Below, in pieces: positions 47,968 through 52,650 of a stretch of 64,000 bases of DNA; position 1 is the stretch's first letter, and each line of letters begins with the position of its first letter. The notes below the pieces were generated by a model. The model searched no databases. It saw only the letters and a program-made list of their open reading frames with translations, and was not told the DNA's origin. This stretch comes from a bacterium (GTDB lineage Bacteria; UBA8248), in NCBI GenBank assembly GCA_965207065.1, contig OZ242260.1, positions 3,232,001-3,296,000 of the forward strand, given 5' to 3'. The position numbers were made by a program, and so were the translations under genes.

Positions 47968-48927
47968 ATGGCATTGGGCACCCGGGGCCGTCCGCCCCAG
48001 ATTCTGAGGGCGCTTCCCTCGCTCATCGATCGCATCGGAAGCACGAGCCTCGTCCAACTGCAGCGACTGCCAGATGCGTCGGGCGGGCGCGTATTCGCGA
48101 AACTCGAGCAGTACAACCCCGGCGGAAGCGTGAAGGATCGCATCGCGCTCAGCATGGTGCTCGACGCCGAGCGGCGCGGCCTCCTGAAGCCCGGCGGGAC
48201 GATTATCGAACCCACGAGCGGCAACACGGGGATAGGCCTCGCGCTCATCGGCGCCATTCGCGGCTACAGGACGATCATCGTGCTCAGCAAGAGCATGAGC
48301 CACGAGCGCAACTCCCTGCTCACGGGCTACGGGGCCGAGGTGGTATTCAGCTCCAGCGAGGGCGGCATGTACGGCTCGCTCGTGATGGCGGAAGCCATCC
48401 TGGATGAGAACCCGGACTACTACATGCCCCAGCAGTTCAACAACCCGGCCAACCCGGAAATCCACCGCAGAACCACGGCGCGCGAGATTCTGCGCGATAT
48501 GGGCGCGGAATCGGTGGACGCCTTCGTGGCGGGCGTGGGGACGGGAGGCACCATCACGGGCGTGGGGGAGGTCCTGAAGGAGAAGAGGCCGGAAACACTC
48601 GTCGTAGGGGTGGAGCCCGCCGCATCCGCCGTACTCTCGGGCGGGGAGCCGGGCCCGCACCAGATTCAGGGTATCGGCGCGGGATTTATTCCCGCCGTGC
48701 TCAACCGCGCGATCATCGACGAGGTGATGCCGGTGAGCGATTCGGACGCCTACGACATGAGCAAGGCCCTGAGCCGCGAGGAGGGCATGGCCGCGGGCAT
48801 TTCGGCGGGCGCCGCGGTAAGCGCCGCCCTGCAGGTGGCGCGGCGGATGAGTCCCGAGGAAAACGTGGTGGTCGTCATTCCCGACGGCTGGGAGAGATAT
48901 TATAGTCTGGAGCAGCATTTTCGCTAG
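47968..48927 (+). CDS. cysK: Cysteine synthase, CysK-like
   Basis: NPGGSVKDR, PTSGNTG, QFNNPAN, GVGTGGT, HQIQGIG. Confidence 0.88.
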   Translation: MALGTRGRPPQILRALPSLIDRIGSTSLVQLQRLPDASGGRVFAKLEQYNPGGSVKDRIALSMVLDAERRGLLKPGGTIIEPTSGNTGIGLALIGAIRGYRTIIVLSKSMSHERNSLLTGYGAEVVFSSSEGGMYGSLVMAEAILDENPDYYMPQQFNNPANPEIHRRTTAREILRDMGAESVDAFVAGVGTGGTITGVGEVLKEKRPETLVVGVEPAASAVLSGGEPGPHQIQGIGAGFIPAVLNRAIIDEVMPVSDSDAYDMSKALSREEGMAAGISAGAAVSAALQVARRMSPEENVVVVIPDGWERYYSLEQHFR

Positions 48928-48980: not shown

Positions 48981-49259
48981 ATGGCGGTAACGGTTCGTAT
49001 TCCGACACCCTTACAGGAGTTCACCCAGCAGCAGGACGCCGTGGATATCGCGGGCGCGGACGTGAAGGAAGTGCTCGCCAACCTCGACAGCCAGTTCGCG
49101 GGCATCGGCCAGCGCCTCTATGACGAAGAGGGTAAGCTCCGACGCTTCGTGAATATCTATGTGAACCAGGAAGACATCCGCTTCCTGCAGGGAGAGGGAA
49201 CGGCGGTGAACGACGGGGATGAGGTCTCCATCGTGCCGGCCATCGCGGGTGGCCGGTAA
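48981..49259 (+). CDS. Ubiquitin-like sulfur carrier (MoaD/ThiS/CysO type), ending GG-R
   Basis: VRIPTPL, RFVNIYVN, GDEVSIVPAIAGGR. Confidence 0.92.
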   Translation: MAVTVRIPTPLQEFTQQQDAVDIAGADVKEVLANLDSQFAGIGQRLYDEEGKLRRFVNIYVNQEDIRFLQGEGTAVNDGDEVSIVPAIAGGR

Positions 49260-49293: not shown

Positions 49294-49944
49294 TTGGGCC
49301 TGAGCGAAGAGCAGATACAGCGCTACAGCCGACACATTCTGCTCCCCGGTGTGGGAGGGGTCGGTCAGGAGCGCTTGCTCGCATCTTCCGTCCTCATTGT
49401 CTTTTCTGAGGATGAGGAGAGCGCGGCGCTCATGGCCCTGGCCTATCTGGCCGCTGCGGGCGTGGGCCGGATCGGCTGGTGTCCTCTGCATGAGAGCGAT
49501 GGATTGAAGCAGGAATCGCCGCTCTGCGCCTTCTATGGCGGCAGCCTGGGCAATGGTCTCAAGAGGCTCAATCCCGATTCGAGGCTGGTTTCCATTCGCC
49601 CGGGTGAGGGAGCGGAAGAGGTTTTCGACGCTCTCGTCTGGCTGGGCGATGCGTCCGCCGAAGATTTCGAGTCATCTAAGTCAATGGGAAAATTCGTCAT
49701 ACGAGGCGGGAGCCGTGGTGAGGCGGGAGAGATTTCAGAAGGCCCCGGAATCCTGGAGAAGCCAGGTATGGCGCCTCAAGGAGGGACAGCCTCGACGGTG
49801 GCGGCCCAGGGAGCTCTGGGCGCATGGCTGGCCGCCAGAACTTTAAGGCATCTGGTGAATGAGACGGATACAGTGGGGTCGACTACGCAGGCCCGTTTCG
49901 ATTTTTCGCATGGCTTGATTGAGGCGCATGCGAACCTTTCCTGA
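49294..49944 (+). CDS. Catalytically degenerate ThiF/MoeB-like protein (paralogue A)
   Basis: TTG start after GAGGAG; keeps RYSRHILL, GQERL, YLAAAGVG, RLNPD; lacks GxGxxG, NLxRQ and both CxxC; frame is intact. Confidence 0.8.
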   Translation: MGLSEEQIQRYSRHILLPGVGGVGQERLLASSVLIVFSEDEESAALMALAYLAAAGVGRIGWCPLHESDGLKQESPLCAFYGGSLGNGLKRLNPDSRLVSIRPGEGAEEVFDALVWLGDASAEDFESSKSMGKFVIRGGSRGEAGEISEGPGILEKPGMAPQGGTASTVAAQGALGAWLAARTLRHLVNETDTVGSTTQARFDFSHGLIEAHANLS

Positions 49945-49977
49945 GATTTTCAGGAACAAAGTGCGAGGGCCATATCA

Positions 49978-50916
49978 ATGGTCGAATCGACAGTGGAGAA
50001 TCCGGCGAGTGCGTTCAGAAATCTAGAGGATTCCCCAATCATCAAGTGTATCGGCAACACCCCCTTGCTCGAAATCAAGTTGTTCGAGAGCGAATTCCCG
50101 GAAGTGGAGGTCTACGCCAAGGCGGAGTGGTTCAACCCGGGCGGCTCGGTGAAGGACAGGCCTGCGCTCTTCATGGTGAAGGACGGCCTGGAAACGGGAG
50201 AATTGCGCCCCGGCAAGATTCTGCTCGATTCCACGAGCGGGAACACCGGCATCGCCTACGCCATGATCGGCGCGGCTTTGGGGATTCCCGTCCGCCTCGT
50301 CCTGCCCGCGAATGCGAGCGATGAGCGCAAGGCGACGCTCAAGGGCTACGGGGCCGATATCGTTCTCTCGGACCCCCTGGAGGGTTCCGACGGGGCGCAG
50401 CGCCTCGCGGCGAAGATGCACCGCGAGGAGCCGGAGAAATACTTTCTACCCTGCCAGTACGACAACCCCGCCAACCCGCTCGCCCACGTGGAGACGACGG
50501 CGCCTGAGATTCTGGAGCAGACCGGCGGGCGCGTGGAGCACTTCGTCGCGGGTCTCGGCACCACGGGCACCCTGGTGGGTACGGGGCGCGGCTTGAAGGC
50601 CAAGAAGCCCGACGTCGTGGTTCATGCGGTCATGCCGTCTGAATCGTTTCACGGCCTGGAAGGCATGAAGCACATCCCCACGGCCATTCGACCGGGGATT
50701 TACGATGAGGGCGTGCACGACAACCTGATTCCGGCGGGGACCGAGGAGAGCTACGACCTGGCCGACCGAATCTCGAAAGAAGAGGGCCTCTTCATCGGCC
50801 ATTCGGCGGGGGCCGCGCTCGTGGGCGTGCGCGAAGTGGCGAAGCAGATAGGGAAGGGCGTTATCGTCACCCTGTTTCCCGACGGGGGGGACAGGTACTT
50901 GAGCGAAGCGCGTTAG
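49978..50916 (+). CDS. cysM: Second cysteine-synthase-family PLP enzyme, CysM-like
   Basis: IGNTPL, NPGGSVKDR, STSGNTG, QYDNPAN, GLGTTGT, HGLEGMK. Confidence 0.8.
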   Translation: MVESTVENPASAFRNLEDSPIIKCIGNTPLLEIKLFESEFPEVEVYAKAEWFNPGGSVKDRPALFMVKDGLETGELRPGKILLDSTSGNTGIAYAMIGAALGIPVRLVLPANASDERKATLKGYGADIVLSDPLEGSDGAQRLAAKMHREEPEKYFLPCQYDNPANPLAHVETTAPEILEQTGGRVEHFVAGLGTTGTLVGTGRGLKAKKPDVVVHAVMPSESFHGLEGMKHIPTAIRPGIYDEGVHDNLIPAGTEESYDLADRISKEEGLFIGHSAGAALVGVREVAKQIGKGVIVTLFPDGGDRYLSEAR

Positions 50917-50927
50917 GGAGGCTTGAT

Positions 50928-51422
50928 TTGCGTCTGACACTAGAACAGGTGGAGGCGATGCACCGCCACGCGCGCGAGGCGTATCCCGATGAGTGTTGCG
51001 GTTTGATCATCGGCCCTCCGCGGGCGCGAGGGGAGCAAGAAGATACGCTCGCTCTTTTGCCGTGTAAAAACGTACAGAACGAGATGCACGAAAAGGACCC
51101 GGAAATTTATCCCCGGACGGCGCGGCGCGCCTTTTTGATCGATCCCTTCGAGTTCGAACGCATCGCCAGGCGGGCCGAGGAGGCCGGCGAGGTGGTTCGC
51201 GGCATCTTTCACAGCCACCCGGACGAGGACGCCTATTTTTCCCAGGAAGACGTGGATGCGGCGGTTCCTTTCGGGGATATCCCGGCGTTTCCCGATGCCG
51301 AGCACGTCGTCATGAGCGTGCGAGAAGGCGTAGTTCTTGGCCAGAAGGTGTATTCCTGGGACGCGGGGCGCAAAGAATTCGTCGAAAGCGAACTGGAAAT
51401 TCTTGAGGAGGCGGGCGCGTGA
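50928..51422 (+). CDS. JAB/JAMM (Mov34, Mec-like) metallopeptidase
   Basis: YPDECCG and HSHPDEDAYFSQED, an intact HxHx7SxxD motif. Confidence 0.92.
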   Translation: MRLTLEQVEAMHRHAREAYPDECCGLIIGPPRARGEQEDTLALLPCKNVQNEMHEKDPEIYPRTARRAFLIDPFEFERIARRAEEAGEVVRGIFHSHPDEDAYFSQEDVDAAVPFGDIPAFPDAEHVVMSVREGVVLGQKVYSWDAGRKEFVESELEILEEAGA

Positions 51423-52153
51423 GCGGTAAAAGCGCACTGGCGCGTACATCCGCCCTCATCGTGGGGGTCGGCGGCCTGGGCTGCCCCGCCGCGCTGGCGC
51501 TGGCCGCGTCCGGCGTGGGCCGCGTCGGGCTTGCGGATCACGACGACGTGACGCTCGACAACCTTGCCCGACAGATTCTCCACCGGACCGAAGACGTCGG
51601 CCGCCTGAAGGTGGACTCGGGCGCGGATTCCATATTCAGGCTCTCCGCCGAGGTGGCGGTGGACAAGATTCCCCAGAAACTCACGCGCAAGAACGTCGCC
51701 CGAATCATCGCGCCTTATGACGTCATCGTCGATGGCAGCGACAATCTGGCGACCAAACTCGCGCTGAACGACACGTGCGCCGTAGCGGGCAGGCCGTGGG
51801 TGATGGGGGGTGTTTTGCGCTTTTTCGGCCAGATGATGACGATTCTGCCGGGCAGGAGCGCGTGTCTGAGATGTCTGGTGGGCGAGGAGGGCGCAAATGC
51901 GCGCGGGCTCGATTGCGGGGACGCGGGCGTCTTCGGCGCGGTGGCGGGTTTCGTGGGCATGGCGCAGGCCGCCGACGCGCTGCGGGTTCTGGAGGGGTTC
52001 GAGCCCGCCTGGTCGAACAGGCTGATGACGGCTGATTTTGGGAAAAACGCCGTCGGGAGTGTGCGCGTGGCGCAGGATCCGGATTGTCCCGTCTGCGCGC
52101 TCGCCACGCGCGGGCAAGCGAAATTCCCCATGAAGCGCGGAGCGCTCGCTTAG
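51419..52153 (+). CDS. ThiF/MoeB-family E1-like adenylyltransferase lacking the N-terminal RYxR segment (paralogue B)
   Basis: GVGGLG, DHD, NLARQ, K, GSDN, CLRC, DCGDAGV, CPVC; in-frame TGA at 51404 excludes an N-terminal extension. Confidence 0.9.
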   Translation: MSGKSALARTSALIVGVGGLGCPAALALAASGVGRVGLADHDDVTLDNLARQILHRTEDVGRLKVDSGADSIFRLSAEVAVDKIPQKLTRKNVARIIAPYDVIVDGSDNLATKLALNDTCAVAGRPWVMGGVLRFFGQMMTILPGRSACLRCLVGEEGANARGLDCGDAGVFGAVAGFVGMAQAADALRVLEGFEPAWSNRLMTADFGKNAVGSVRVAQDPDCPVCALATRGQAKFPMKRGALA

Positions 52154-52191: not shown

Positions 52192-52650
52192 ATGAAGATA
52201 TCGACCAAGGGACGATACGCCGTGCTCGCCATGATAGAGTTGGCCAGGCATTCGCAGACGCATCCCGTTCCCTTGCCGCAGATAGCGGGCAAACTCGGCA
52301 TCAGCCAGCATTATCTCGAACAGTTATTCGTGAAAATGCGCAGGGCTTCTCTGGTGAGCAGCACGCGGGGGCCGGGAGGCGGCTATATCCTGGCGCTCCC
52401 GCCTTCCGGGATCAACATGCGCGATGTTTTGTGCGCGGTAGGAGAGACGATTCAGCCCGTCGATTGCGGCGATGAATCTCCTTCGGCGCCGTGTCCGAAC
52501 ATTCCTGTATGCGGGAGCCGCGCGCTTTGGAAAAAACTCGAAGACGCGATTGACAAGACGCTGCGCGAGACCACGCTCGAAGAGTTGAGCGCGGCGTCTG
52601 CCGATGCGGGAGGTGGCGTTCGGCTGCCGAATTTCCAGGTGAGTATCTAG
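52192..52650 (+). CDS. Rrf2-family regulator (IscR/CymR-like) with three Cys
   Basis: STKGRYA, YLEQLF, STRGPGGGY, C-x8-C-x5-C. Confidence 0.92.
   Translation: MKISTKGRYAVLAMIELARHSQTHPVPLPQIAGKLGISQHYLEQLFVKMRRASLVSSTRGPGGGYILALPPSGINMRDVLCAVGETIQPVDCGDESPSAPCPNIPVCGSRALWKKLEDAIDKTLRETTLEELSAASADAGGGVRLPNFQVSI

Follow-up and report, generated by a model that had tools for sequence, protein, structure and literature searches.

Complementary ThiF paralogues in a Nitrospinota cysteine operon: a candidate E1-like enzyme with a separate pseudo-subunit

The 64,000-nucleotide stretch of bacterial DNA analysed here (the window; contig OZ242260.1 of assembly GCA_965207065.1, positions 3,232,001 to 3,296,000) contains a co-directional block of seven genes, CysK-CysO-A-CysM-JAMM-B-Rrf2 (Table 1). 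A and B are paralogues of the ThiF/MoeB family of E1-like (ubiquitin-activating-enzyme-like) adenylating enzymes. A has lost the catalytic residues of the family and retains its N-terminal arm, and B is a complete adenylation domain without this arm. From these complementary defects a first-pass annotation had proposed that A and B form an obligate heterodimer with one active site. The order of the seven genes is constant across every locus fetched.

Table 1. Genes of the operon, with positions in the window, supporting evidence and dN/dS (ratio of nonsynonymous to synonymous substitution rates; Nei-Gojobori method, 19 orthologue pairs, each against the window). PLP, pyridoxal 5'-phosphate.
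Gene	Position	Strand	Assignment	Evidence	dN/dS
CysK	47968..48927	+	O-acetylserine sulfhydrylase A, first gene of the operon	TIGR01139 cysK, E 3.7e-120, 400.7 bits (cut-off of 350.95 exceeded)	0.084
CysO	48981..49259	+	CysO-like sulphur carrier (ThiS/MoaD β-grasp)	PF02597 ThiS, E 1.7e-17; C-terminus ...AIAGGR	0.076
A	49294..49944	+	catalytically dead ThiF-fold paralogue (pseudo-E1) with N-terminal RYSRH arm	alignments, fold model, dN/dS	0.31
CysM	49978..50916	+	CysM-like PLP cysteine synthase	TIGR01138 cysM, E 7.5e-102, 340.8 bits (below the equivalog cut-off of 394.2); PF00291, E 2.8e-63	0.087
JAMM	50928..51422	+	JAMM/Mec+-type metalloprotease	motif HSHP...S..D; PF14464 Prok-JAB, E 1e-19	0.114
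B	51419..52153	+	complete ThiF/MoeB adenylation domain, armless, without rhodanese domain	PF00899, E 3.3e-60; MoeB/ThiF alignment	0.23
Rrf2	52192..52650	+	Rrf2-family regulator (IscR/CymR-like), last gene of the conserved block	PF02082, E 2.7e-35; TIGR00738, 123.1 bits (cut-off of 73.3 exceeded); start set at the beginning of the Rrf2 profile match	0.075

A consists of 216 residues and is read from a TTG start with the ribosome-binding site GAGAGGAG upstream. It retains the segment QRYSRHILLP...GQERLL and the scaffold motifs YLAAAGVGRIG, LNPD and GALGAWLAA, the last being the Gly/Ala-rich dimer helix; residues 3-61 align with residues 4-59 of MoeB in the solved structures. FSEDEES occupies the position of GVGGLGC in B (the GxGGxG P-loop), and alignment with B and other ThiFs shows that A also lacks the DxD motif, the Arg of NLxRQ, the Lys, the Asp of DxSDN and the zinc-binding cysteines of the CxxC motifs. 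The absence of the P-loop was judged by alignment, and a GVGGVG string in the arm of A mimics a P-loop when motifs are searched by pattern. A has no Pfam match at E ≤ 0.01, PF00899 included, and the NCBIfam MoeB models cover only residues ~26-88 of the longer open reading frame (ORF), with an E value of 4e-12 that lies far under their cut-offs.

B (244 residues) has what A lacks. Its GTG start overlaps the stop codon of the JAMM gene and has GAGGAGG upstream. B matches PF00899 with 203.6 bits (cut-off, 28.1) over profile positions 14-238 of 238, and aligns over the whole adenylation domain with MoeB and ThiF from the MoeB-MoaD (1jw9/1jwa) and ThiF-ThiS (1zud) complexes (E 2e-38 to 4e-39). The GVGGLG P-loop is present, as are both CxxC pairs (C149/C152 and C223/C226) and the loop cysteine C166. 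R51, K64 and D108 correspond to R73, K86 and D130 of MoeB, which are matched to catalytic residues of human UBA1 in a 2025 review (PMC12355090). Residue 3 of B aligns with residue 25 of Escherichia coli MoeB, and the protein starts about 22 residues late (MoeB ~23-25). The frame upstream of the start is interrupted by an in-frame TGA at 51404-51406, and none of 31 B orthologue loci has an RYxR segment upstream of B in an open frame. The arm is kept in 32 of 32 A loci, mostly with a TTG start. The defects of A and B are complementary residue by residue, and the pattern is not due to chance, because both proteins have orthologues across the phylum. The first-pass description of the two proteins, including the genuine absence of the arm from B, is borne out by these alignments.

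Several genomes of the same genus (loci L037, L040-L048 and others) have a 75-nt insert, open in B's frame, after the GTG that overlaps the JAMM gene. It encodes a Pro/Ala-rich N-terminal extension of about 25 residues (SLHNPRAGLPDEAPPAS...), within which there is no RYxR, and gene callers give B forms of 269-272 residues in these genomes.

A is under purifying selection, strongest on the arm. When the orthologue pairs were pooled by region, dN/dS was 0.045 for residues 1-30 (arm), 0.20 for residues 31-62, 0.46 for residues 63-165 and 0.27 for residues 166-216. Neutral evolution of A, which would have spoken for a gene without function, was not seen. Within the arm, R10, Y11, S12 and H14 are invariant and R13, the equivalent of MoeB Arg14, is variable. 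A protein without a site of its own thus retains, at a level of constraint typical of enzymes, the segment with which MoeB and ThiF subunits extend into the site of their partner.

The distribution of the two genes was surveyed in 51 Nitrospinota genomes. Full-length A is present in 30 of them, 29 of which also have a B-type gene (at least 52% identity); in the thirtieth (G021) the contig stops just after CysM, before the slot of B. Another genome (G009) has both A and B, truncated where its contigs end. The 20 genomes without A also lack a B-type gene, and no intact A or B was seen without the other in the 51 genomes. Nine relatives keep CysK-CysO-CysM-JAMM-Rrf2 without intact A or B. Both slots are empty in G022 and G034 (which belong to the same genus), G039 and G042-G045. 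In G037, which lacks B, a collapsed relic of A lies between CysO and CysM: its arm is degraded to QIQRSSRHVLPP, there is an in-frame stop before the arm, its middle part is largely deleted, and VGSTAQARF can still be read at the C-terminus. In G010, which lacks A, a C-terminal relic of B of about 50 residues lies between JAMM and Rrf2. The two slots are separate, and the empty slots and relics therefore indicate repeated joint loss of A and B. ThiF matches of the rhodanese-ThiF kind, with about 36% identity to B, occur in every genome but one; the window's own genome encodes elsewhere a rhodanese-ThiF of 399 residues, with an N-terminal rhodanese domain, as a complete third ThiF. Within the phylum A is neither sporadic nor neutrally evolving, and no armless B-type gene was seen intact without A in the genomes surveyed; none of the outcomes that the first-pass annotation had named as contrary to its proposal was observed there.

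One genome (G029) has two whole copies of the A/B operon on different contigs (C6:36561-37208 and C8:829567-830214); its contamination figure is 16, and the copies may derive from two strains.

An AlphaFold2 model of A, based on 33 orthologues, was of moderate confidence (predicted local distance difference test, pLDDT, 70; predicted template modelling score, 0.73). A Foldseek search with this model returned ThiF as the best match (1zud; E 9.7e-10, template modelling (TM) score 0.61/0.57), then Uba4 and MoeB (1jwa, TM 0.61), and after these the SAE1 and APPBP1 chains of eukaryotic E1s. At this level of modelling, A has the Rossmann-like fold of the E1 (ThiF) family. We then modelled B with ATP, Mg and A. 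The interface score (ipSAE) was 0.92 (0.92-0.93 in three runs), and the best of three controls scored 0.00; at least 90% of the contacts recurred between runs, and the partner pLDDT was 80-81. In calibration, 58 of 80 solved complexes attained the tool's mark, as did 2 of 110 mismatched pairs; these counts are rough here, given the custom alignments and the small molecules included in the model. The predicted interface comprises residues 6, 9-14, 16-18 and 20 of A and residues 46-58 of B (the NLARQ region), and the tightest pairs listed join a helix of A (170-181) to residues 174-185 of B. The model thus places A's arm on the ATP site of B, where the first-pass annotation had suggested looking for it, and builds the interface from the same dimer helix and N-terminal arm as in MoeB and ThiF. 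Of the 51 A positions conserved at 90% or more, 22 lie in the predicted interface, which comprises 56 positions (odds ratio 2.9; descriptive only).

Outside Nitrospinota, A/B pairing was seen on three metagenome contigs only. The clade of B (at least 50% identity) is Nitrospinota wherever the source names are on record, and the next tier, at about 45% identity to B, contains canonical ThiFs and other arm-less ThiFs. The metagenome relatives of one of these arm-less ThiFs, P0228, yielded 52 loci that are 4 kb or longer, in three of which (L146-L148) the ThiF is arm-less. All three have, within 4 kb around CysO-CysM, a ThiF paralogue of 234-247 codons that keeps RYSRQ and lacks the P-loop, NLxRQ and DN. 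In the remaining 49 loci the ThiFs are armed, and a motif-less ThiF neighbour is absent.

A-like proteins are found more widely than the pair. A profile made from the A alignment, run against 1.84 billion representatives, retrieved 44 proteins with the arm and without P-loop and NLxRQ among the 87 listed matches of at least 195 residues. With a second profile, made from 23 A-like proteins, 109 of the 120 best matches were A-like by motif, and 119 of the 120 keep two CxxC pairs. In the databases these proteins are named "ThiF family adenylyltransferase" or "hypothetical", and they come from Binatia, "Deltaproteobacteria" and Nitrospirota metagenome-assembled genomes. Neither Pfam nor NCBIfam has a model specific for them, and they probably constitute a large unnamed family. 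A genome search with profile A5, for which a threshold of E ≤ 1e-62 or 1e-64 was used as canonical ThiFs score 150-200 bits, found one borderline A-like protein in 301 genomes of one phylum (that of G051) and none in 120 and 251 genomes of two others (those of G053 and G054), with Binatia outside the search. In a contig scan with the A alignment, full-length A among the matches listed was confined to Nitrospinota (L066-L071) and the other 74 loci were canonical ThiFs; the scan was not exhaustive, and the RYSRH pattern is a common one.

A quick maximum-likelihood tree of 47 sequences puts all competent ThiFs into a single clade (support of 100 in the Shimodaira-Hasegawa-like approximate likelihood ratio test). 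Inside this clade, a subclade of 13 rows (support 96) unites eight Nitrospinota B proteins with five of the six other arm-less ThiFs. A branch with a support of 100 separates the 20 rows of A and A-like proteins from the competent ThiFs; the placement of the A side is uncertain, with long branches and odd composition. The tree shows no sign of common descent of the A/B split with the split in eukaryotic E1s.

A locus assigned to Nitrospinota by its record (L102, 5718-11044; genome G052) has the same gene order, with complete, armed, motif-bearing ThiFs in both ThiF slots and one carrier gene common to the two complete E1s. A DsrE-family gene and a second small ORF lie between ThiF1 and CysM, and a TusA gene precedes ThiF2. 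We considered this locus as the ancestral state and dropped the idea: the tree groups neither ThiF1 with A nor ThiF2 with B, and BLAST preferences are slight. Many loci from Nitrospira/Nitrospirota (L072-L143) have a conserved arrangement CysK-ThiF-(about 1.2 kb)-CysO-ThiF-JAMM, again with two complete ThiF paralogues.

Several known enzymes can be compared with the pair. The eukaryotic E1s NAE1(APPBP1)-UBA3 and SAE1-SAE2 are heterodimers of an inactive and an active adenylation subunit, in which the inactive subunit supplies the arginine. A and B resemble them in that one dead and one active adenylation domain are encoded together, in the same operon in 30 genomes, and are predicted to pair. 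Unlike A/B, the eukaryotic enzymes possess a catalytic-cysteine domain and a ubiquitin-fold domain and work with a ubiquitin-conjugating enzyme (E2); the product of A/B would be a sulphur carrier and not a protein conjugate. There is no E2-like gene in the operon, and B is a bare adenylation domain without catalytic-cysteine or ubiquitin-fold domain. Judged by this domain content, the A/B pair may resemble the adenylation core only, and membership of the canonical E1 class is excluded. The parallel to eukaryotic E1s drawn in the first-pass annotation holds to that extent and no further.

MoeB and ThiF are described as symmetric homodimers with two active sites in the 2025 review (PMC12355090). 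The fold of A and the P-loop, catalytic residues, zinc-binding cysteines and loop cysteine of B are like theirs; the difference is that the halves of A/B are separate genes, one dead and one armless. In yeast, Tcd1-Tcd2 is a ThiF-family heterodimer acting as a dehydratase in the synthesis of cyclic N6-threonylcarbamoyladenosine; according to a 2026 study, Tcd1, which lacks the ATP-activating Arg, gives its finger Arg59 to the site of Tcd2, and the R59A mutation in Tcd1 has little effect (PMC13139853). Tcd1-Tcd2 is like A/B in consisting of two ThiF-family paralogues with complementary residues; it differs in being eukaryotic and in having tRNA, not a ubiquitin-like protein, as its substrate. 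Among bacterial E1s, BilD of the Bil antiviral ubiquitination system carries both an inactive adenylation domain and an active one on a single polypeptide, and a 2023 preprint states that all other known bacterial E1-like proteins form homodimers (PMC10557695). BilD thus also pairs an inactive adenylation domain with an active one; unlike A/B, which are two genes of a sulphur-carrier pathway, it is a single chain with a Cys domain and acts with an E2. We found no description in the literature of a two-gene dead/active ThiF pair in a bacterial sulphur-carrier pathway; inactive families may already be listed in a survey of the E1-like superfamily published in 2009.

The rest of the operon points to cysteine synthesis. 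CysK occupies an identical position in all related loci, and a Gly-Gly carrier, a CysM-type PLP enzyme and a JAMM hydrolase in one cluster make up the gene set of the CysO/CysM/Mec+ pathway. In Mycobacterium tuberculosis, CysO, CysM and Mec+ synthesise cysteine in a thiocarboxylate-dependent manner together with the E1 MoeZ, a single ThiF-rhodanese protein encoded outside the cluster. The window operon resembles the mycobacterial system in its clustered ThiS-like carrier, CysM and JAMM protease. It differs in holding the A/B pair, and no MoeZ-type E1 with a fused rhodanese domain was found in it. A further difference is that its CysO has a single residue past the Gly-Gly; trimming is therefore needed before adenylation, presumably by the JAMM protease of the operon. 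The L146 carrier has AIAGG as its C-terminus, and we saw no JAMM gene between the genes of its cluster. The same contig has a NIL-domain protein (PF09383; 9464-9751) between CysM and the A-like gene, and L147 has a similar small ORF there.

A threonine-synthase-like PLP enzyme (PRK08197) is encoded near the operon (57807-59057, minus strand; 306 bits) and also on L146 (6781-8055; 323 bits). On L146-L148 the arm-less ThiF and CysO flank it directly; it may be a second enzyme that uses the thiocarboxylate. Two adjacent small ORFs in the window (54566-54898 and 54977-55249, minus strand; 110 and 90 residues) have no Pfam match at E ≤ 1e-4. A sequencing run on record as RNA (X2) yielded three 150-nt contigs, over CysM, the JAMM/B junction and the end of B with Rrf2, and none over A; contigs over A come only from run X1, the RNA status of which is guessed.

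We favour the reading, with a probability of roughly 0.62, that A and B pair as the unlike subunits of a MoeB-like E1, an asymmetric dimer dedicated to CysO. By homology with the mycobacterial CysO/CysM/Mec+ system, the JAMM protease would first remove the trailing Arg of CysO. B, as the only ATP/Mg site, would then adenylate the C-terminal glycine, and sulphur transfer would give CysO-thiocarboxylate. CysM would convert the latter into a CysO-cysteine adduct, from which the JAMM protease would free cysteine. A, its own site lost, would pair with B through the canonical dimer helix and the C-terminal strands, with its RYSRH arm laid over the nucleotide site of B. Such a dimer could have arisen by complementary loss: after the site of A had died, the arm of B would have had nothing to serve and would have been lost, and the arm of A would have been kept for B. 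A one-site dimer of this origin is the most economical account of the data. From the anatomy of the two proteins, their joint losses, the selection on A and the models, we infer physical binding of A to B, a single active site and a part for the arm in catalysis or in closure of the site; the arm may take part in catalysis, cover the site like a lid or latch, or stabilise the complex.

Several observations weigh against this reading. Its weakest step is that the dimer should be obligate through the arginine, as the first-pass annotation had it. This causal step is weakened because the arginine fingers of MoeB (Arg14) and ThiF (Arg11) are reported not to be essential, and TcdA to have none, in the 2026 study (PMC13139853); moreover, R13 of A is replaced by His in two of 32 orthologue loci (L054 and L056). 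B might work alone, and the pair is dispensable where another E1 can serve, because relatives without A and B retain the rest of the operon. A evolves faster than all its operon neighbours. The raw co-occurrence counts (29 of 30 genomes) overstate independence, as the genomes are related and A and B belong to one operon, and it is the separate slots and the relics that carry the argument. Finally, the complex score may reflect the modelling tool's memory of solved MoeB and ThiF homodimers, and hence likeness rather than binding. What stands of the original proposal is a heterodimer supported by co-occurrence and co-loss, purifying selection, the ThiF fold of A and the complex model; its dependence on the arginine has become doubtful.

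The main alternative is that B is a self-sufficient homodimeric ThiF that has shed a dispensable arm, as in TcdA. A would then be a pseudoenzyme that serves the pathway in some other way: it might hold CysO or CysM, bring in a sulphur donor or pair with the rhodanese-ThiF. The non-essential finger and the R13 variants fit this explanation, B keeps every catalytic residue as well as the dimer helix, and the genome has its third, complete ThiF. It leaves unexplained why the most constrained part of the site-less A is the arm that reaches the ATP site of a partner, and why A and B were lost together from separate slots, leaving relics, while the rhodanese-type ThiFs persist; the model, too, sets A on B and gives nothing for the controls. 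We regard it as unlikely. Somewhat less improbable is that A and B do form a complex in which A is regulatory or structural and the arm a latch, not a catalytic arginine finger; A might make B more stable, restrict the enzyme to a single CysO at once or serve as a docking site for a partner in sulphur relay. All the evidence for a heterodimer applies here as well, and both the reported dispensability of the finger and the His variants at R13, set among invariant neighbours, are in its favour. The evidence does not separate it from the one-site dimer that we prefer, as the two differ solely in the function of the arm.

That A is a functionless, decaying duplicate is nearly excluded. It has lost all catalytic motifs and the zinc site, has the highest dN/dS of the operon and goes unrecognised by Pfam, as a relic might. 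Against decay, the frame of A is intact (210-234 codons) in 30 genomes with identities down to 38%, its dN/dS is well under one over its whole length and very low in the arm, and A-like proteins form a large family. Where A does decay, in G037, a stop codon and a deletion are seen.

The findings point to a bacterial E1-like enzyme with a separate pseudo-subunit, probably one belonging to a wide unnamed family. A bolder view, which we hold only tentatively, is that A/B is one branch of a widespread unnamed two-gene bacterial E1 made of obligate asymmetric heterodimers, its active arm-less ThiFs a single clade extending past Nitrospinota and its dead arm-bearing ThiFs a large family, and that bacteria invented the inactive/active split in trans, independently of eukaryotes or before them. 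Bacterial E1-like proteins are taken to be symmetric homodimers, and the inactive/active split has been treated as a hallmark of eukaryotes, recently seen in fused form in BilD. On the bolder view, this architecture would have arisen within bacterial sulphur-carrier metabolism, in trans. A two-gene version in ordinary sulphur metabolism would give a simple, expressible system for asking why E1s are asymmetric and what the arm and its arginine do, and it could show how pseudoenzyme subunits arise through complementary loss. It would also flag hundreds of proteins now called "ThiF family adenylyltransferase" or "hypothetical" as probable non-catalytic partners.

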